Shown piece by piece: positions 27,839-58,960 of a stretch of DNA of 64,000 bases. Positions within the stretch are counted from its first letter, which is position 1, and every line of letters starts with the position of its first letter. The translations under genes and the position numbers were made by a program. The notes under the pieces are model-generated. The model searched no databases. It was not told the DNA's origin and was given only the letters and a program-made list of their open reading frames with translations. Origin of the DNA: an uncultured Nitrososphaerota archaeon (GTDB lineage: Archaea > Thermoproteota > Nitrososphaeria > Nitrososphaerales > CADDZS01); contig CAWCYI010000004.1 in NCBI GenBank assembly GCA_963799845.1, positions 96,001 through 160,000 on the forward strand. The letters run 5' to 3'.

Positions 27839-28186
27839 ATGAGATTGGAAGATCAGATAGTGTCATTCGCTGACGATAAAGGCTTCAACGGCAAGATCTC
27901 CGAATGTATCGAGAAAGCCCTCGATTCTCTCGGTGAAGGTGTGAAGCAATCATTTTTTCACCAAATCATCGAGAAATATCATCTGCCAAGAGAACAGTTT
28001 GCAAGTAGACCTGCTGAGATTATCGAGCATCTTGAGGAAATTCTCGGGCCGACGGGGTCGGCGGTAGTAGAGCGGCTGATCGTGAGAGAAATCCGAAATA
28101 AATTTGGTCTCGAATTCAGGGGCAACATGAAATTGTCTGTGGTTATCCAAGAGGCTCGAAGTAAATTTCTGGATGTTGCGGATTAG
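27839..28186 (+). CDS. Small archaeal helical-domain protein (DUF3227/'output domain'-like)
   Basis: IEKALDSLGE..P..LEEILG..GSAVVERLIVREI pattern. Confidence 0.65.
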   Translation: MRLEDQIVSFADDKGFNGKISECIEKALDSLGEGVKQSFFHQIIEKYHLPREQFASRPAEIIEHLEEILGPTGSAVVERLIVREIRNKFGLEFRGNMKLSVVIQEARSKFLDVAD

Positions 28187-28298
28187 AGGATTCTTTTCCT
28201 GGATTTTTCCATATTCATCTTGATAACGTCCGAAGGCAATCATGTAAATCTGGGCGAAGCTCATTCTTCCCAGTCATTTCAGGAGAAAAAATTCAATC

Positions 28299-28665: not shown

Positions 28666-28982
28666 TTTGCGAATCGAATACCTTCCTCAACAGGTCAGCA
28701 TTCCTGTTTCTCCACTTATTCTGATAGGAGCACCGATCTGGATTTCTGCTAGAACCAGATGCGAGGATGGTTTGAAGATTTGGCTCTATCATCGAAAACT
28801 CGTGAAAGGAAGATACCTGTAGCTCGGCCGAGAAGTCGGAGTAATTTCAGATTCCGTGGTCACTTACACCCAGTCCGCGGCGATCACGTCATGTTCGACT
28901 CGACATGGTGATTAGAGCCAATCGAAAACGCGATGCAAGGCCCAAAGCAAAGAGAAAACTAAGCGTTTTACGAAACCGAGAG

Positions 28983-29180
28983 AGTTTACGAGGATTTATT
29001 GTTAATCGTTCTTTATATTTGAGTTCCCATTGATTCATTAAGAAAAAAATTTTCTGCGTTTCTGCGCACGTGAGCACTTCTTGGCCGAAGAGCTACGTTC
29101 AAAGCTCTGTTAGCTCAGAAGAGCTTGAAACGAGCTGAACGGAGCTCAGAGAGCTCGAAACGCATTGAACGAAGCTTTAA
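28983..29180. repeat. Dispersed non-coding element, copy 1 (AT-rich core plus phased AGCT array)
   Basis: Reverse complement of 56241-56471; core 28983-29045 matches 56409-56471 at 60/63 nt. Confidence 0.9.
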
Positions 29181-29308
29181 AATTTCGCATATTTTCTTGC
29201 GGGTCGAAACCGCGCCCGGCTAACGAATCTAAAATACTGTCAAACCTTCGTGACATAAATTATCGTAGGAGATAAGAAAGATTAAACTCAAAGACGTTTG
29301 ATAAAGAA

Positions 29309-29324
29309 CAGGCTGAACAGCCTG
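29309..29324 (-). terminator. Small hairpin downstream of rps30e
   Basis: CAGGCTG-AA-CAGCCTG followed on the minus strand by TTCTTT. Confidence 0.3.
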
Positions 29325-29356: not shown

Positions 29357-29524
29357 CTAAACGTTGATCCAGTTCTGACCGGGCTTTCTCTTCTCCTCGT
29401 ATCTTTTTATGAAAGTCCTTCTGTTGCGTGACTTTGGAATAGGGCCCACTCTGACTCTTCCCTGAATCTTCGGAGTCTGAGACCTAACCTTACCAGCTTT
29501 AGTCAGCGAACCGTGAGTTGGCAA
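29357..29524 (-). CDS. rps30e: 30S ribosomal protein S30e (not in the ORF track)
   Basis: TTG start; MPTHGSLTKAGKVRSQTPKIQGR..., 55 aa. Confidence 0.95.
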   Translation of the reverse strand: MPTHGSLTKAGKVRSQTPKIQGRVRVGPIPKSRNRRTFIKRYEEKRKPGQNWINV

Positions 29525-29598: not shown

Positions 29599-30423
29599 TC
29601 ACGATTTTGGAACCAGAGCTCCGGTCTTGTCTCTCTCGTATTTTCCAAACTCGTTTGAGATTCTGGAAAGCAGAGCGATGTCTAACACTGGACCGTCCCG
29701 ACAGAGTACAAGATCTTGAATGCAACAGCTCCCGCAGATTGCAATCCCGCACTTCATTATTCTTTCAAGACTGAATTGAACAGGAATCGAATTATCCTTC
29801 GCAATCTGGTAAATCTGAAACATCATTCTTTCAGGACCGCAGGCGTATATCATATCAAAATCAAATCTTTCCACCAGCTCCTGTACCTTTTCATGGGCGA
29901 AGCCTCTGAAACCAAGAGAGCCGTCGTCGGTAGACGGGTAAACATTCTCAGAGCCAAGCAAACGTTTCATCAGCTGCAAGAACGGAAGTTCTTCCCGGGT
30001 CCTTGCACCGATGACTACTCTCGCATCCAGCGACTTAGTATCGGCAATCTGGCTTGCAAGTTTCATGACAGACGCAATTCCTGTTCCTCCCCCGACAAGG
30101 AGAGCTCTCCGTGTTTTCTTCGGTACCGAAAAGGCGGTTCCATATGGCCCTCGCACACCAATTAGATCTCCCTTCTTGACGTTGTACAACTCTCGCGATC
30201 CAGATCCCATCGCTTTGACGACGATGCTCGATCTATTTCCATAAGTGAGGGAAAGGCTCATGGGAAATTCTCCAACCCCTGGCAACCAGATCATAGCAAA
30301 CTGTCCCGGAGCTGACGAAAGAGAGAACTTGTCTTCAAAGACTAACGTGCGGATGTTGCTCGAATTCTGAACGGTTCTCTCGATCTTTGTTACTCTTACA
30401 GAATCAATTGTGCGCATCGCCAA
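29599..30423 (-). CDS. pyrK: Dihydroorotate dehydrogenase electron transfer subunit
   Basis: RGPYG, GGGTG, ACGP and MKCGIAICGSC..LCRDGPV 2Fe-2S motif. Confidence 0.94.
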   Translation of the reverse strand: MAMRTIDSVRVTKIERTVQNSSNIRTLVFEDKFSLSSAPGQFAMIWLPGVGEFPMSLSLTYGNRSSIVVKAMGSGSRELYNVKKGDLIGVRGPYGTAFSVPKKTRRALLVGGGTGIASVMKLASQIADTKSLDARVVIGARTREELPFLQLMKRLLGSENVYPSTDDGSLGFRGFAHEKVQELVERFDFDMIYACGPERMMFQIYQIAKDNSIPVQFSLERIMKCGIAICGSCCIQDLVLCRDGPVLDIALLSRISNEFGKYERDKTGALVPKS

Positions 30424-45090: not shown

Positions 45091-45231
45091 GGAGGGGTGG
45101 CGGAGAGGTCACGCGTCCGCCTGCAGTTCAAGGCAAGCTATCTTTGAGCTCTCGAAGCAAAGATTAGTAGTAAGCGGATTCTCGCCAATCAGCTAGACGC
45201 AAATATGTGGGTTCGAATCCCACCCCCTCCT
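45091..45231 (+). tRNA. tRNA-Cys(GCA) with two introns (37/38: 45127-45172; ~44/45: 45180-45202)
   Basis: GGAGGGG/CCCCTCC-T73, anticodon stem TCCGC/GCGGA with CTGCAG|A loop, T-arm GTGGG-TTCGAAT-CCCAC; BHB central helix CTGC/GTAG. Confidence 0.88.
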
Positions 45232-53963: not shown

Positions 53964-54653
53964 TTGTCGTCTCAAGATGAAACTATTCTTGCACAGGAGC
54001 AGAGCGTGCTGAGAAAAGACAGTTCGGGGAAAAAGATCGACGGGACTCTTATTTTGACGGATCGGCGCCTTTTGTTTGTCGAAGCAAACAAGGAAGAAAA
54101 TCTGACTGGTGAGGTTGGAAATCGATCGGCAACTTTGCGGTTTGCAGATGTCGAGGATCTGAAGGATCTGCCGTCAGAACAGTACAATCTCTCAATCCCC
54201 CTTGACTCCGTGACTTCGGTATCCGGTTCTGAAGGAATTTTTCATACTCCCGAGTTGAAGGTGACGTGGAAAACGGACTCTGGTGTCAAAAGCGAAGAGT
54301 TCACCGAAGACATAATCGGCGGAAGGAAAAAGGATCTCAAGGACTGGGCGAAGGTCATCCAATCACTAAAGTCTGGCAAGATAATGATTCAGAGACTGCC
54401 CAATCCACCTCCGAGCATCGACTCTCTGGAAGGAAAAATACTCCACATGTTGGGAGACATGCAGGAAAAGGGGACCTTTGAGATTGAAGAAGAAGTAGAA
54501 TCGGAGTTCAAGTTGGATCTCGATATCGACCTGGTCGAGGAAGCCTGCGAGAAACTCGCGTCGCTCGGCCTAGTTGACAAAAATCCAGATTCGAGTGGTG
54601 ACGTCTTCTACCGGAAACGCTCCCCCCTCGGTGAGGACGATCTTTCCAGCTAA
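53964..54653 (+). CDS. Hypothetical protein with PH/GRAM-like N-terminus and winged-helix-like C-terminus
   Basis: GTLILTDRRLLF..SIPLDSV; C-terminal ILHML..EIEEEV..VEEACEKLASLGLV. Confidence 0.6.
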   Translation: MSSQDETILAQEQSVLRKDSSGKKIDGTLILTDRRLLFVEANKEENLTGEVGNRSATLRFADVEDLKDLPSEQYNLSIPLDSVTSVSGSEGIFHTPELKVTWKTDSGVKSEEFTEDIIGGRKKDLKDWAKVIQSLKSGKIMIQRLPNPPPSIDSLEGKILHMLGDMQEKGTFEIEEEVESEFKLDLDIDLVEEACEKLASLGLVDKNPDSSGDVFYRKRSPLGEDDLSS

Positions 54654-54666
54654 GAAGGATTCTCCC

Positions 54667-55449
54667 GTGTCACAAAAGGAATTCTCGAACATCAACACCG
54701 CGGTCGAGGAAGACGTTGGCCTGATATTCCTGAATCGCCCGGGTGCTCTAAATGCGCTGTCGTCCGGGTTGATGAGCGAACTCGTGGAAGCGCTGAAATG
54801 GTTTGAAGCTAATGGTGCAATTAGATGCCTCGTAATAACTGGAAGCGAAAAGGTGTTTTCAGCCGGTGCGGACATCAAGGAGATGTCGGCGTGGACTTCA
54901 GCGGAGGCATTGAAGCAGGCAAATCTGGAACGGTTTGACGTTGTAAAGAAAATTTCAAAGCCCATCATAGCGGCAATAAGTGGATACGCGCTCGGCGGTG
55001 GGCTGGAGCTCGCGATGGCGTGCGACATCATAGTTGCCGCAGAGGGTACGAAGCTGGGTCAGCCTGAAATAAACATTGGAGTCTACCCAGGGGCCGGCGG
55101 AACGCAGAGGCTGACGAGAGCCGTTGGAAAGTACAAGGCGATGGAAATGATTCTGACCGGAGTTCCCATCGGCGCGAGGGAGGCGCTCGCCCGCGGGCTC
55201 GTGAGCCGGGTCGTTCCAAACGAGCTGTATCTGACTGAGGCAAAGAAGCTCGCGCACGAGATTGCACAAAAGTCTCCCCTGGCTGTAAGCATCGCCAAGG
55301 AATGCATCCTCAAAGCGCACGAGACTACGCTGACGGAAGGGCTCGCGTTTGAGCGGCGGAACTTCTACCTTATGATGTCGAGCGAAGACAAGCAGGAAGG
55401 TATGAAGGCCTTCCTCGAGAAGAGAAAGCCGAACTACAGAGGAAAGTAG
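54667..55449 (+). CDS. Enoyl-CoA hydratase (PaaF-like)
   Basis: FSAGADIKEM, GGGLELAMACD and GQPEINIG..PGAGGTQRL (both catalytic Glu). Confidence 0.92.
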   Translation: MSQKEFSNINTAVEEDVGLIFLNRPGALNALSSGLMSELVEALKWFEANGAIRCLVITGSEKVFSAGADIKEMSAWTSAEALKQANLERFDVVKKISKPIIAAISGYALGGGLELAMACDIIVAAEGTKLGQPEINIGVYPGAGGTQRLTRAVGKYKAMEMILTGVPIGAREALARGLVSRVVPNELYLTEAKKLAHEIAQKSPLAVSIAKECILKAHETTLTEGLAFERRNFYLMMSSEDKQEGMKAFLEKRKPNYRGK

Positions 55450-55451
55450 TC

Positions 55452-56243
55452 TTGAGCTCCCCGGAGTCGATCCTCGTTAGGAAGGAAAACGGCGTAGCGT
55501 GGGTAACCCTGAACCGTCCTGAAGTTCTGAACGCATGCGACATTCCAACGTTGAAAAAGCTGGGTGCCGCTCTAAAAGAAATCGAGGCCGATCAATCGAT
55601 CAGATGCGTTGTGATTACTGGAAGCGGGCGAGCGTTCTGCGCTGGCGCCGATCTTCAGGCGATCAAGCACAGAACTACGAATGAAAAAATCTCGCTCGAC
55701 GACGATCTGAGGCAAGGATTCAACCCCATCGTATCGCGGATTTTCAACATGGACAAGCCCGTCATCGCTATGGTCAATGGAGTCGCGGCCGGCGCTGGAA
55801 TGGCAATCGCGTTTGCCTGCGATCTCAGGATAATGAGCGAAGGTGCAAGGTTTGTAGAGGCGTTCGCGAAGGTGGGACTCGTGCCCGACTCCGGCGCCAC
55901 ATACACGATGCCGCGTCTTCTGGGGTTAACGAAGGCGATGGAGCTCGGATTCTCAGGCGAGGGAATTGACCCGAAGGAGGCTGAAAGACTGGGAGTTGTT
56001 ACAAAAGTTGTCGCGCAAGATAAACTTGAAATTGAGACCCGAACTCTCGCGGAGAAACTTGCGCACGGCCCCAAGGGTCTGGGGCTGACAAAGCGCGCGA
56101 TTCACAGGGCACTTTCCCTTGATTTTGATGCCGCGTTAGAGTATGAAGCCGAGATGCAGGCGATCGCGGGATCGAGCGAAGATCACGAGGAAGGAGTTAG
56201 AGCATTCGCCGAAAAGAGAAATCCGAACTTTCGCGGAAGCTAA
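55452..56243 (+). CDS. Enoyl-CoA hydratase/isomerase (PaaG-like)
   Basis: FCAGADL, GVAAGAG and AFAKVGLVPDSG (single catalytic Asp pattern of PaaG). Confidence 0.88.
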   Translation: MSSPESILVRKENGVAWVTLNRPEVLNACDIPTLKKLGAALKEIEADQSIRCVVITGSGRAFCAGADLQAIKHRTTNEKISLDDDLRQGFNPIVSRIFNMDKPVIAMVNGVAAGAGMAIAFACDLRIMSEGARFVEAFAKVGLVPDSGATYTMPRLLGLTKAMELGFSGEGIDPKEAERLGVVTKVVAQDKLEIETRTLAEKLAHGPKGLGLTKRAIHRALSLDFDAALEYEAEMQAIAGSSEDHEEGVRAFAEKRNPNFRGS

Positions 56244-56471
56244 AAGTTTCGTCCAATTCGTTCTGAGCTCTCTAAGCCCCGTTTCAGCTCGTTTCGAGCT
56301 CTTCTGAGTTAACAGAGCTTGAAAGTCAGCTCTTCGGCCAAAAAGCATGCACGTGTGTGAAGCAGAAAAATTTTTGGAACTGTCAAGTCTTCGTCAATTT
56401 TGCACGAATTTCTTAATGAATCAATGGGAATTCCAATATAAAGAACGATTAAGAATAAATCCTCGTAAACT
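56241..56471. repeat. Dispersed non-coding element, copy 2
   Basis: Reverse complement of 28983-29180, with an extra ~33-nt spacer (56376-56408). Confidence 0.9.
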
Positions 56472-56731
56472 GCCTGAAACTGCTGTCATTAGCTTATTTT
56501 TTGCTGCATTGATCTTTCTACCATTCGGCTTCCTTCTCCTTTTCTGTGACTTGGTGCTGTAGTGCGAGGAGTAAGGCGTAAGGACACCTCGAATATCAAA
56601 GCGGAGCTTTCAATCAAGGTATTTCATTCCTCTTTTCACGTTCCAGAGATTCGAAAAATAATTCCTGGTATTTGGAATCAGGATTTAAATCAGAAAACGC
56701 TTTTATCCGATATCGGCGATTTCAGCGCTAA

Positions 56732-57742
56732 ATGTCAGAGAATCCGGATTACTCCAAGGATCCGCCAGCGATTGAACTTCCCAACATCTACCCGGTAGAG
56801 TGGACGGTCGATACACCGAAGCTGGGAGACCTCTATGAGAGGGCAAAGAAGGAAGCCTGGAACCCATCCTCGATCAACTGGGAATCCGTCAATCCAAAAG
56901 AGTACGACGAGAAGCAAAGGACCGCGATGGCGTACTGGTGGGCGCTGCTTGCTAACTTTGAAAATTCGGGGCCGCCGGTTTTTGCAAAGGCGATGATACA
57001 CACTTTCGAGATTCACGAGCAGGATCCCGTGAAAAAGATGTTTGCGTCGATAGTGATGGACGAGTGCCGACACGACGAATGCTGCATGAGGGCTTGCAAT
57101 AGGGTGTGCCCCAACTTTCTCCAGGGCTGGAAGCCTAAGAATAATTTTGACGAGGACGCGCTTCGAAACATAAAGTGGGTCTACTACAACGGCGCGAGGT
57201 ACTGGCGCGGTTACAGCACCGCGTACATGAAACACTCATGGCCGGTCATTTTTTCATCGTTCATGCTCGGTGAGCGGTGCGCGGCGACGCTGTTCAGCGA
57301 GATGAGCAAGCACTCGACACATCCTGCTTTTACGGAGGCATTGAAGAACATTGCAAAGGACGAATCGCGCCACCTCGCGTTCACGTGGCTGGGGCTTGAA
57401 AGCGTCGCAGCAAAATTAACGGAGGAAGACAAGAGGACCGTGACAAAGCAGCTTCGCGCCGGTTTCACCTTTCTCTCGATGATACTTTACGAGCCCCCAA
57501 AGGAATTCTGGAAGCTCCCTCCGAACTTCCTCGACGTGCAAAACAGGATGGAGGAGATCGCCCGCGGTGCGGGGCTGGGGGTGCTGTCGCTGAATGAAAA
57601 GCGGCAGTGCTGGAAAAATGCGATTTTAGAGGTTAAGCGGCGGATGGACGACTTTGGAATCGAGTTCCCGGCACTCCCCGAAATTGGGATTACCGGAAAG
57701 GAAGTTGAGTTTGACGAAAACTCGATGATGCCGACGTTCTAG
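56732..57742 (+). CDS. Ferritin-like diiron-carboxylate protein (putative oxygenase)
   Basis: Ligand pattern NFE..DECRH..LGE..DESRH (E, ExxH, E, ExxH); LYERAK..WNP..INW N-terminal motif. Confidence 0.8.
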   Translation: MSENPDYSKDPPAIELPNIYPVEWTVDTPKLGDLYERAKKEAWNPSSINWESVNPKEYDEKQRTAMAYWWALLANFENSGPPVFAKAMIHTFEIHEQDPVKKMFASIVMDECRHDECCMRACNRVCPNFLQGWKPKNNFDEDALRNIKWVYYNGARYWRGYSTAYMKHSWPVIFSSFMLGERCAATLFSEMSKHSTHPAFTEALKNIAKDESRHLAFTWLGLESVAAKLTEEDKRTVTKQLRAGFTFLSMILYEPPKEFWKLPPNFLDVQNRMEEIARGAGLGVLSLNEKRQCWKNAILEVKRRMDDFGIEFPALPEIGITGKEVEFDENSMMPTF

Positions 57743-57751
57743 CGGAAGAAT

Positions 57752-58960
57752 ATGCCGAAAATGCTTGAAGAGGCTGTCATCGTTGACAGCGTTCGTACTC
57801 CGATCGGGAAGTATGGCGGAGTACTTTCTTCAGCCCGGCCGGATGACCTCGCCGCGCTCGTGATCAGGACTCTAGTCGAACGCAACAAGATCGATTCAAG
57901 CCAGATAGAGGATGTGATCTTCGGCGACGCAAATCAGTCCGGCGAGGATAATCGAAACGTCGCACGGATGGCTTTGCTCATAGCTGGGCTTCCGATCAAG
58001 GTAGCAGGCACGACCGTGAACCGATTGTGCGGCTCGGGGCTTGAGGCGATAAACCAGGCGGCGAATTCGATTATGGTCGGTAACGGCGGGATTTACATCG
58101 CCGGCGGGGTGGAGAGCATGAGCCGCGCTCCATTGGTACTCCCAAAGAGTTCTAAGCCGTTTTCCAGAGAAACCGAACTCTACGATTCGACGTTAGGCTG
58201 GAGATTGGTCAACCCGAAACTAGCGGAAAAGTTCTATCCCTACAGCATGGGGCAGACCGCGGAGAACCTCGCGCAGAGGTACTCGATACCGAGGGATGAG
58301 CAGGACAGGTTTGCGCTGAGAAGTCACGAGCGGGCGGTTAGGGCGACGAACGGCGGGACTTTCAGGGAGGAAATAATTCCCGTGCCCGTTATCGATTCCT
58401 CGGGAAAAGGATCTCTGGTGGAGAAGGATGAAGGGCCGAGGGCGGACACGTCCTTGGAAAAACTTTCTCTGCTAAAACCGGTGTTTCGCGTGAACGGAAC
58501 GGTTACGGCCGGCAATTCGAGCGGGATTAATGACGGCGCGGCCGGGGTGCTGATCATGAACGAGAAGAGGGCGACCAAGCTCGGGTTAACACCAAAAGCA
58601 CGGATTATTTCGACTGCCGTCGCAGGTGTACACCCGAAGTACATGGGGCTGGGACCTGTCCCGGCTTCCAAGAAGGCTCTCCGACGGGCGAAGATGGATC
58701 TCGATCAGATCGATCTCGTCGAGATCAACGAAGCATTCGCGGCGCAGGTGCTTTCGTGCCTGAAATTCATGGATTTTGACAAGGGCAGGATGAACGTGAA
58801 CGGCGGGGCGGTAGCCCTTGGCCATCCGATCGGCTGTTCTGGGGCTAGGATAATGACGACGCTTCTACACGAGATGGAAAGACGAAAGTCTCATCTCGGG
58901 CTCGCGACGGCGTGTATCGGTGTTGGCCAGGGCATCGCGACAATAGTCGAGAGAGTTTAG
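57752..58960 (+). CDS. Thiolase (PaaJ/PcaF-like)
   Basis: ANQSGEDNRNVARM, NRLCGSG, NEAFA, GHPIG and CIGVGQG motifs. Confidence 0.93.
   Translation: MPKMLEEAVIVDSVRTPIGKYGGVLSSARPDDLAALVIRTLVERNKIDSSQIEDVIFGDANQSGEDNRNVARMALLIAGLPIKVAGTTVNRLCGSGLEAINQAANSIMVGNGGIYIAGGVESMSRAPLVLPKSSKPFSRETELYDSTLGWRLVNPKLAEKFYPYSMGQTAENLAQRYSIPRDEQDRFALRSHERAVRATNGGTFREEIIPVPVIDSSGKGSLVEKDEGPRADTSLEKLSLLKPVFRVNGTVTAGNSSGINDGAAGVLIMNEKRATKLGLTPKARIISTAVAGVHPKYMGLGPVPASKKALRRAKMDLDQIDLVEINEAFAAQVLSCLKFMDFDKGRMNVNGGAVALGHPIGCSGARIMTTLLHEMERRKSHLGLATACIGVGQGIATIVERV

Follow-up and report, generated by a model that had tools for sequence, protein, structure and literature searches.

What kind of element repeats the tetranucleotide AGCT eight times at intervals of about one helical turn, and what does it mean that it is found twice, in opposite orientations, in the same piece of an archaeal genome? 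The question is raised by a 64,000-nucleotide stretch of DNA from an uncultured Nitrososphaerota archaeon (hereafter the window; C4:96001-160000 of a 4.6-Mb assembly in 9 contigs, genome G000), in which copy 1 of the element lies at 28983-29180 on the plus strand and copy 2 at 56241-56471 on the minus strand. An initial annotation of the window had described them as two copies of an undescribed cis element, for which a methylation-sensing array, a histone-positioning sequence, an origin or segregation site and a non-coding RNA were considered. The analysis reported here points to another answer. Both stretches are copies of a genus-restricted, non-coding, mosaic and palindrome-rich interspersed repeat family, which is probably an archaeal analogue of repetitive extragenic palindromic (REP) sequences and of the related REPIN and bacterial interspersed mosaic element (BIME) arrangements. 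G000 is 86.7% complete and the assemblies of its relatives are fragmentary, the congener G003 for instance being 61% complete in 350 contigs.

Every figure of the initial annotation was reproduced by recount. In copy 1, AGCT starts at 29091, 29103, 29112, 29122, 29133, 29143, 29152 and 29173, with spacings of 12, 9, 10, 11, 10, 9 and 21. In copy 2, it is present at 56266, 56286, 56297, 56316 and 56328, and a sixth occurrence, beyond those annotated, was found at 56238. The AT-rich segment called module B (28983-29045) is identical at 60 of 63 positions to the reverse complement of 56409-56471. Both copies contain CACGTG (29067 and 56350), TTGGCCGAA (29081; reverse-complemented at 56333) and the TATA-like CTTTATAT (29011; reverse-complemented at 56436), and copy 2 carries a 33-nt insert between its modules. 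Aligned over their whole span, the two copies show 74.3% identity in 230 columns, with 24 mismatches and 35 gap columns. AGCT occurs 295 times in the window (1 per 217 bp), which gives eight occurrences per 90 bp a Poisson P of 1.5e-8 per 90-bp stretch (there are about 711 such stretches in the window), and the AGCT cluster of copy 1 is far beyond chance.

Nevertheless, the two sites do not form a special pair, since they are only 2 of at least 56 loci in the genome. Searching G000 with the element returned 63 matches, and blastn gave 79 high-scoring segment pairs. A family profile built from 22 copies produced 128 nhmmer hits, which merged into 79 loci, 56 of them at or above 40 bits (hereafter the strong loci). 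Copy 1 matched this profile at 29010-29173 (plus strand; C4:125010-125173; hidden Markov model positions 2-163; 170.9 bits) and copy 2 at 56249-56444 (minus strand; C4:152249-152444; positions 2-162; 142.3 bits), and these intervals correspond to a shared core of about 165 bp. A long form of about 430 bp was also observed, 8 examined copies extending into a second version of the middle module. In parallel, words of the family proved to be the most frequent 12-mers of G000, with up to 62 copies, and in two soil DNA runs the summed depth of metagenome contigs was 165-214 over 29014-29215 vs 5-9 over the flanks. Two other over-represented word families, unrelated to this one, were also observed across G000, a TTTACTAGTAAA-type (40-47 copies) and a AACCTGGCCGACATAA-type (35-37 copies).

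The claim that conservation is non-coding and acts at the nucleotide level was borne out. The open reading frames overlapping module B (28889-29077 on the minus strand and 56347-56562 on the plus strand) have in common only the peptide encoded by the 63-bp core, reading frames across module B matched no Pfam family, and similarity ends upstream of the core, where other copies lack any homology; together these observations support non-coding conservation. Of the 56 strong loci, 55 lie outside called genes, as do all 54 occurrences in G000 of a 15-mer unit of the array, AGCTTGAAACGAGCT, 49 of which are within 400 nt of a family match. Genes were called with a simple home-made codon-usage caller that missed the 55-aa gene for S30e, so that gene-context statistics are approximate. 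With this reservation, copies are enriched in gaps between convergent genes (22 of 54, for 9.7-10.9 expected; P 8e-5 to 4e-4) and depleted in divergent gaps (6 of 54, for 11.3-14.6 expected; P 0.046 to 0.004), and in tandem gaps the two element orientations are about equally frequent (14 vs 12).

The flanking genes are unrelated housekeeping or metabolic genes, including those for dihydroorotate dehydrogenase subunits, two enoyl-CoA hydratases, a thiolase, topoisomerase IB, L15e and an AlaX-like protein. Only 2 of the 83 flanking reading-frame pieces examined at 30 loci belong to transposase families, and none of the 83 belongs to a Cdc6/Orc or partition family, with one ScpB neighbour. Element orientation showed no relation to GC skew as a replichore signal, the skew itself being weak. 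A replication origin or segregation site, one of the functions first proposed, is thus rejected given the at least 56 loci, the lack of cdc6/orc neighbours and the lack of a relation to skew.

How are the copies built? In alignments they read, from 5' to 3', as a TATA-class box, a conserved block AGTTCCCATTGATTC, an A/T run, a middle module and the AGCT array. The box varies in its letters (CTTTATAT, CTTCAAAT, CTTCATAT, CTTTAAAT, CTTTTAAT and others) and stays within the TATA class. The A/T run is either A6-8 then T3-5, or T6-8, and the middle module, which exists in three cassette-like sequence variants, ends on its 3' side with a T4-5 run and GAAGAGCT. In copy 1, all on the plus strand, the alignments place the box CTTTATAT at the 5' edge of the family core (29011-29018), followed by the 5' block AGTTCCCATTGATTCATTAAG and an A7T4 run (29022-29053; a T7-8 run stands there in other copies) and by a middle module at 29051-29089 that contains TTTCTGCG twice, CACGTG, a T-run broken to TTCTT, and TTGGCCGAAG, with a period-8 repeat at 29051-29066 found by TRF. 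The array, module A of the initial annotation, occupies 29090-29176 and forms an imperfect palindrome, as established from AGCT counts and from tandem- and inverted-repeat searches. In copy 2, it spans 56241-56348 on the minus strand, its 3' end adjoining the stop codon of an enoyl-CoA hydratase gene (55452-56243, plus strand; Pfam ECH_1).

Module B had been taken as a single unit and splits in two. Its downstream part stood as the family-wide 5' module, made of the TATA-like box and AGTTCCCATTGATTC. Its upstream part is an extension of about 28 bp (28983-29010 on the plus strand in copy 1, 56445-56471 on the minus strand in copy 2) that was found by pattern in only 5 genome copies and is absent from most. 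This subfamily extension is conserved in the positional orthologues of copy 1 and of copy 2, for the latter in the metagenome contig L092. The 33-nt insert of copy 2 (56376-56408, minus strand) separates the 5' block from the middle module and is private to the G000 copy, being absent from the positional orthologues L092 and L098; the 17-mer at its core has just one other occurrence in the genome, at C6:336651.

The AGCT phasing of copy 1 is a property of the whole family. Among the 287 AGCT-to-AGCT spacings of 57 full-length copies, taken from three sources, 237 fall within 9-12 bp (mean 10.2) and another 38 within 19-21 bp, so that further copies keep the phasing on which the first reading had been staked. 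The number of AGCT sites is 4 in 5 of the 57 copies and 5 in 15 of them, and one subfamily lacks part of the array. The array is made of units of 10-11 bp with a self-complementary AGCT core. In copy 1 it contains a 30-bp tandem duplication (29112-29176; 2.1 copies, 82% matches) that overlaps a palindrome of 67 nt in total, whose 30-nt arms (29096-29125 and 29133-29162) are 70% complementary and enclose the 7-nt centre TGAAACG (29126-29132). This pairing is kept across the family: in 40 distinct copies, 83.2% of 875 cells were paired, vs 21-43% when partners were slid as controls. The centre is flipped between copies, some having AGCT-TGAAACG-AGCT and many AGCT-CGTTTCA-AGCT, the same 15-mer inverted. 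Close to the 3' end of the element there is another flip, GAAAC/GTTTC, and in many copies the second half is inverted relative to the first. Since AGCT is its own complement, units of 10-11 bp yield both the phasing and the hairpin potential, and no separate explanation of the phasing is needed; most simply, it is a by-product of repeated units around an AGCT core, including the tandem duplication and the long-armed palindrome. As a single strand, the array has the potential for one long hairpin or for a series of short ones, which we infer might also form in vivo.

Regarding its range, the full element was found in only G000 and G003 (23 matches) among 41 genomes of the order. The 15-mer unit is more widely distributed and was counted 54 times in G000, 20 in G003, 9 in G004, 5 in G002 and once in G006, that is in 5 of the 7 genomes of the genus, with none in G001 and G005. 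It was absent from all 54 genomes of 37 other genera, and a reversed control pattern gave no occurrence anywhere. In G004, the unit is located at the end of a different repeat. This genome has a dispersed repeat of its own (L033, L037), consisting of a GGGCCCCC...GGGGG module that ends in an AGAGCT-TGAAACG-AGCTCT hairpin unit. An exact 28-nt pattern was found in 19 metagenome contigs and in six contigs of one Nitrososphaerales metagenome-assembled genome record, and in none of the viral contigs. Metagenome contigs with an alignment of at least 300 nt are about 77-94% identical to G000, most alignments being at 80-87%. Collections of phages and plasmids held no match to the element.

Presence at orthologous loci varies between relatives. 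G004 and G002 have no element at the copy 2 locus, their gaps measuring about 220 and 120 bp vs 488 bp in G000; in the metagenome contigs L092 and L098 the locus is filled, at the same hydratase-stop junction. The copy 1 locus is filled in G003, and no element was found beside S30e in G004, G006 and G001, in which upstream synteny differs. Flanking sequence places about a dozen of 21 G003 loci at positions in G000 that are likewise occupied by a copy. A G003 copy on C207 and its counterpart at C1:110609-110630 of G000 were considered as a clean filled/empty pair. This was rejected, as G000 retains there about 30 nt resembling the 3' end of the element, and the pair is read as a deletion. In another G003 copy, L069, the two flanks correspond to G000 sequences that adjoin separate family copies (C6:1054629 and C4:569006); either recombination between repeats or a chimera in the short-read assembly would explain this.

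The copies also change slowly. Comparison of five flanking genes of G000 with those of its relatives gave an identity of 0.51-0.71 at four-fold degenerate sites (54/105, 61/115, 87/133, 72/126 and 17/24), and the intergenic DNA beside orthologous elements is mostly unalignable. By comparison, 11 elements that are positional orthologues are 0.69-0.95 identical. The element sequence is therefore constrained and changes several times more slowly than four-fold degenerate sites. Median identity is 0.74 among G000 copies, 0.81 among G003 copies and 0.76 between the two species, whose copies are intermixed in the tree; species-specific homogenisation is thus absent. Under standard theory, neutral concerted evolution would let the consensus sequences of two species diverge at the neutral rate. 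The consensus sequences of G000 and G003 have not drifted apart, so that selection on the sequence is needed, whether on the host, on the element or on both. It follows from this slow evolution that some sequence-specific recognition would keep the copies.

Such constraint raises the possibility that the element serves the host as double-stranded DNA. Its AGCT sites, spaced by roughly one helical turn, would be targets for a lineage-specific protein, be it DNA-binding, chromatin-associated or methylation-reading. Several observations are in line with this proposal. The spacing of 9-12 bp is kept across the 57 copies, a flip of GAAAC to GTTTC between AGCT cores leaves an equivalent duplex, sequence rather than pairing is conserved, copies are kept at the same loci across species while evolving slowly, and the genome encodes one archaeal histone-fold protein. 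Nevertheless, common descent accounts for the shared phasing, which results from the array being built of tandem and palindromic repeats. One subfamily has lost part of the array. The full element is missing from 5 of the 6 congeners searched, which would be odd for a core chromatin or replication signal, and its orientation is unrelated to GC skew. The methylation-sensing array first envisaged found no support in word statistics, AGCT having an observed/expected ratio of 1.10 genome-wide with no sign of avoidance or of an AGCT-directed restriction-modification system. The same holds for histone positioning. The WW/SS dinucleotide periodicity of the family is unremarkable, with a best period of 9.5 bp and a median that is attained by 23.5% of 5000 88-bp windows drawn at random from the genome. 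No candidate for the binding protein was identified. A role as a helically phased duplex for such a protein is consequently judged improbable.

The TATA-class box suggests a different function, in which each copy would be a gene for a small non-coding RNA with its own promoter. The transcript would start about 25 nt downstream of the box (around 29043 in copy 1) and would act through its AGCT hairpin array, for example as a protein sponge or an antisense regulator. A TATA-class motif begins every full copy, its letters varying yet remaining TATA-like, and hexamers resembling it (CTTTTA, TAAATA, TTATAT, TTAAAT, CTTAAA) are enriched 22-50 nt upstream of the start codons of G000. Constraint well beyond that of four-fold degenerate sites would also be expected of an RNA gene. 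Fold z-scores, computed on the single copy 1, are modest: -2.6 for the minus-strand RNA, which goes in the same direction, -3.1 for the DNA, and -1.7 for the plus-strand RNA, which does not. The T-runs speak against this reading. One of T4 to T8 begins no more than about 10 nt from the predicted start, and most copies have another, of T5, about 38 nt from that start. Oligo-T is a termination signal in archaea, and the transcript would thus be expected to stop before reaching the array. Convincing compensatory changes are lacking as well, since the RNAalifold structure showed few and inconsistent double changes and the local hairpins had no pair with a double change; the long palindrome had 7 such pairs, each in one sequence, vs up to 6 in slid controls. 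Rfam gave no match to the element: at the gathering threshold the window contained only a tRNA, and a search of seven loci with E values up to 1 allowed returned no hit on the element. In addition, the two halves of the element have opposite orientations in many copies, an arrangement that a gene for a strand-specific RNA could not accommodate. Two small peat metatranscriptome runs, available as contigs, contained no RNA contig over the element; in the region of the window they cover only 28121-28298, 29361-29518 (the S30e of a relative) and 30111-30323, and this result says nothing either way. Overall, an RNA gene of this kind seems unlikely.

A role at the ends of transcripts may also be considered, in which the copies would terminate neighbouring genes. 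Genome-wide, a T5 run lies within 50, 100 and 200 nt of the stop codon in 12%, 20% and 30% of 2869 genes, respectively. Of the 37 gene ends located at most 150 nt from a copy, 16 have their first T5 inside the element and 6 have it ahead of the element, and for the other 15 it follows the element or is missing; the use of the A-rich or the T-rich variant of the 5' run did not track the orientation of the neighbouring gene. In this weak test, the T5 positions speak neither for nor against a terminator role.

If the family is indeed a REP-like repeat that multiplied as DNA, traces of mobility would be welcome, and it is here that several observations weigh against this reading. No terminal inverted repeats were found, copy 1 having internal inverted repeats only and two long copies sharing no terminal pair. 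Likewise, there is no target duplication: in 24 copies with a fixed 3' end the longest k-mer shared by the flanks averaged 3.92, vs 3.95 +/- 0.22 after shuffling, and in 44 copies with a free 3' end the self scores equalled the cross scores, 2 of 44 exceeding the 95th percentile. The empty sites examined include none with boundaries clean enough to demonstrate an insertion event, and no polymorphism was observed within a population. As for a REP-type partner transposase, the only Y1 genes (PF01797) of G000 belong to two ordinary IS605-type tnpA-tnpB units. An insertion sequence (IS) of the IS110 family was also rejected as partner, since no element lies near its second copy and no consistent link emerged. 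The hairpin pairs show no convincing compensatory change either. Only 2 of 11 G003 copies have their positional orthologue as the closest G000 copy, and for 4 of 11 it ranks among the top three; to explain this, module exchange or conversion, or replacement at the locus, must be invoked. Finally, most mappable G003 copies sit at loci that G000 copies also occupy, and they evolve slowly, as would be expected of a host cis-element no less than of a selfish repeat.

The search for partners yielded some further observations. PF01797 was absent from the 12 relatives searched, which include the 61% complete G003. The two IS200/IS605 tnpA-tnpB units of G000 (C4:~749900-751230 and C6:~728300-729600) are 93% identical over 2.8 kb, and each lies beside a transposase-like reading frame. 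The IS110-family element of 1512 bp has two copies that are 99.6% identical (C6:337307-338818 and C4:1287262-1288773), of which the one on C6 is located between a lone 5' module and the remainder of a family copy. A 13-nt terminal pair in one long copy is at chance level; the idea of insertion into a pre-existing hairpin, which this pair had prompted, was rejected by the comparison of self and cross flanks in the 44 copies.

These results bear heavily on a classical MITE (miniature inverted-repeat transposable element), that is a deletion derivative of a known IS moved in trans by its transposase. The family is small, non-coding, multi-copy and intergenic, it is patchily distributed among congeners, G004 and G002 lack an element at the copy 2 locus, and the genome has IS110, IS66 and IS200/IS605 elements, all of which would suit a MITE. 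However, neither the terminal inverted repeats nor the target duplication of such elements is present, the phage and plasmid collections gave no match, and no IS with the ends of the element was found among the IS110 and IS605 elements or the reading frames between paired copies, in a genome 86.7% complete and with fragmentary relatives. The classical MITE is therefore highly improbable and already largely refuted by these data. In agreement with the initial annotation, neither terminal inverted repeats, nor a transposase, nor cdc6 explains the element, and no known IS, MITE or Rfam family accounts for it.

The interspersed, REP-like repeat family remains the preferred reading, and it can be put as a sequence of steps. 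Copies are assembled from exchangeable modules, namely the 5' module, the middle module in its three variants and an array of AGCT-centred units of 10-11 bp. They would have multiplied as DNA in the common ancestor of G000 and its nearest relatives, by a route that leaves neither terminal inverted repeats nor a target duplication, and would have been retained mainly beside the 3' ends of genes, where they are least harmful. Recombination or template switching, with the self-complementary AGCT cores as points of exchange, may then have swapped modules and flipped hairpin loops; such events would explain both the loop flips and the inverted halves. Occasionally, copies would have been deleted. 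Sequence-specific recognition, by a host factor, by the copying machinery or within the 3' untranslated RNA of neighbouring genes, would have preserved the others. As to what reads the sequence, a protein that copies, maintains or binds it is preferred, followed by a role in 3' untranslated RNA or termination and, lastly, by a small RNA encoded by the element itself.

A bolder and less probable elaboration of the recognition step would make the family more than tolerated selfish DNA, namely a constrained element of a soil Nitrososphaerales lineage at orthologous gene 3' ends whose AGCT-N7-AGCT units are read by a lineage-specific protein, possibly a copying machinery independent of RAYT or a DNA- or RNA-binding factor. 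If this were true, a binding factor would use the array as a landing pad, for instance as a transcript-end, insulator or chromatin signal, and copies would have been kept for as long as four-fold degenerate sites took to reach near saturation.

The description as an undescribed element still holds. The element has no match in Rfam or in the phage and plasmid collections, and the literature searched, at the level of main texts (supplements might list repeats), describes no such repeat family for Nitrososphaerota. For instance, the main text of a survey of thaumarchaeal mobile elements does not contain the words MITE, miniature or non-autonomous (PMC6563490). The family lacks any hallmark of the known spreading routes, whether terminal inverted repeats, target duplication or RAYT, yet it evolves slowly. 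It offers a concrete and countable system for studying the persistence of small repeats in archaeal genomes and their possible usefulness to the 3' ends of genes. It also marks possible rearrangement points between related genomes. In practice, such repeats break the short-read assemblies of these soil archaea, several contigs of a relative beginning or ending inside one, and they can be mistaken for regulatory sites when a single window is read.

The immediate surroundings of the two copies deserve a brief description. Copy 1 lies 180 nt beyond the S30e gene. A hairpin, CAGGCT-GAAC-AGCCTG, is present at 29309-29324 on the minus strand, 32 nt downstream of the S30e stop codon, and is followed by a T-rich run; it looks like the own terminator of S30e, well before copy 1. 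Around copy 2, tandem enoyl-CoA hydratase paralogues (54574-55449 and 55452-56243) are found together with an AurF-like di-iron protein (weak match; 56732-57742) and a thiolase (57752-58960). Elsewhere, one family copy (L014 1374-1469) is located about 30 nt downstream of an intron-bearing tRNA gene, and another (L005 1-56) about 1.4 kb upstream of a 16S rRNA gene, in matching orientation. The window itself contains an intron-bearing tRNA gene of 141 nt at 45091-45231 on the plus strand (Rfam, 43 bits), which was not reported by ARAGORN.

How does the family compare with known systems? The GATC clusters of the Escherichia coli oriC, to which the AGCT array was first likened, serve SeqA-Dam sensing. 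The two have in common a short palindromic tetranucleotide that recurs within a short stretch. In contrast to that single locus, the present family has at least 56 dispersed copies, word statistics give no sign of an AGCT-specific modification system, and the clustering is explained by the construction of the units. The likeness to prokaryotic MITEs, such as Correia/NEMIS, ERIC and RUP or SM1-SM4 of Sulfolobus, goes further, as it includes a size of 160-430 bp, a non-coding and intergenic nature, a lineage-specific expansion, a presence that varies between relatives and motifs that may resemble promoters or terminators. Unlike MITEs, the family has no terminal inverted repeats, no target-site duplication and no autonomous parent among the elements found.

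The closest parallel is offered by REP- and BIME-type repeats, which are well studied in Proteobacteria together with the enzymes that maintain them. The present family is not a member of the REP/RAYT system, as two defining features are lacking. No RAYT-like single-copy Y1 gene was found, RAYT being the Y1 HUH transposase that moves or maintains REPs, and the unit, AGCT-N7-AGCT, starts with AGCT and is without the GTAG/CGTC tag that defines the two REP superfamilies (PMC3733652). Its host is an archaeon, its stems are built on AGCT cores of mixed AT/GC composition instead of being GC-rich, a TATA-like 5' module is attached to it, and it has about 56-79 loci vs the more than 100 typical of REPs. 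Yet, by the definitions of REP, REPIN and BIME (PMC2817692, PMC3116915, bioRxiv 10.1101/2022.05.22.493013), the resemblance concerns most aspects of organization. The family consists of short imperfect palindromes in high copy number outside genes. Like BIMEs, its copies are mosaics with units in alternating orientation, as seen in the inverted halves, the loop flips, the cassette variants and the repeated module, and like REPINs they contain a doublet able to form a longer hairpin. Finally, restriction to a genus or species, vertical persistence at loci and a preference for the 3' ends of genes are traits that the archaeal repeats share with their possible counterparts in Proteobacteria.

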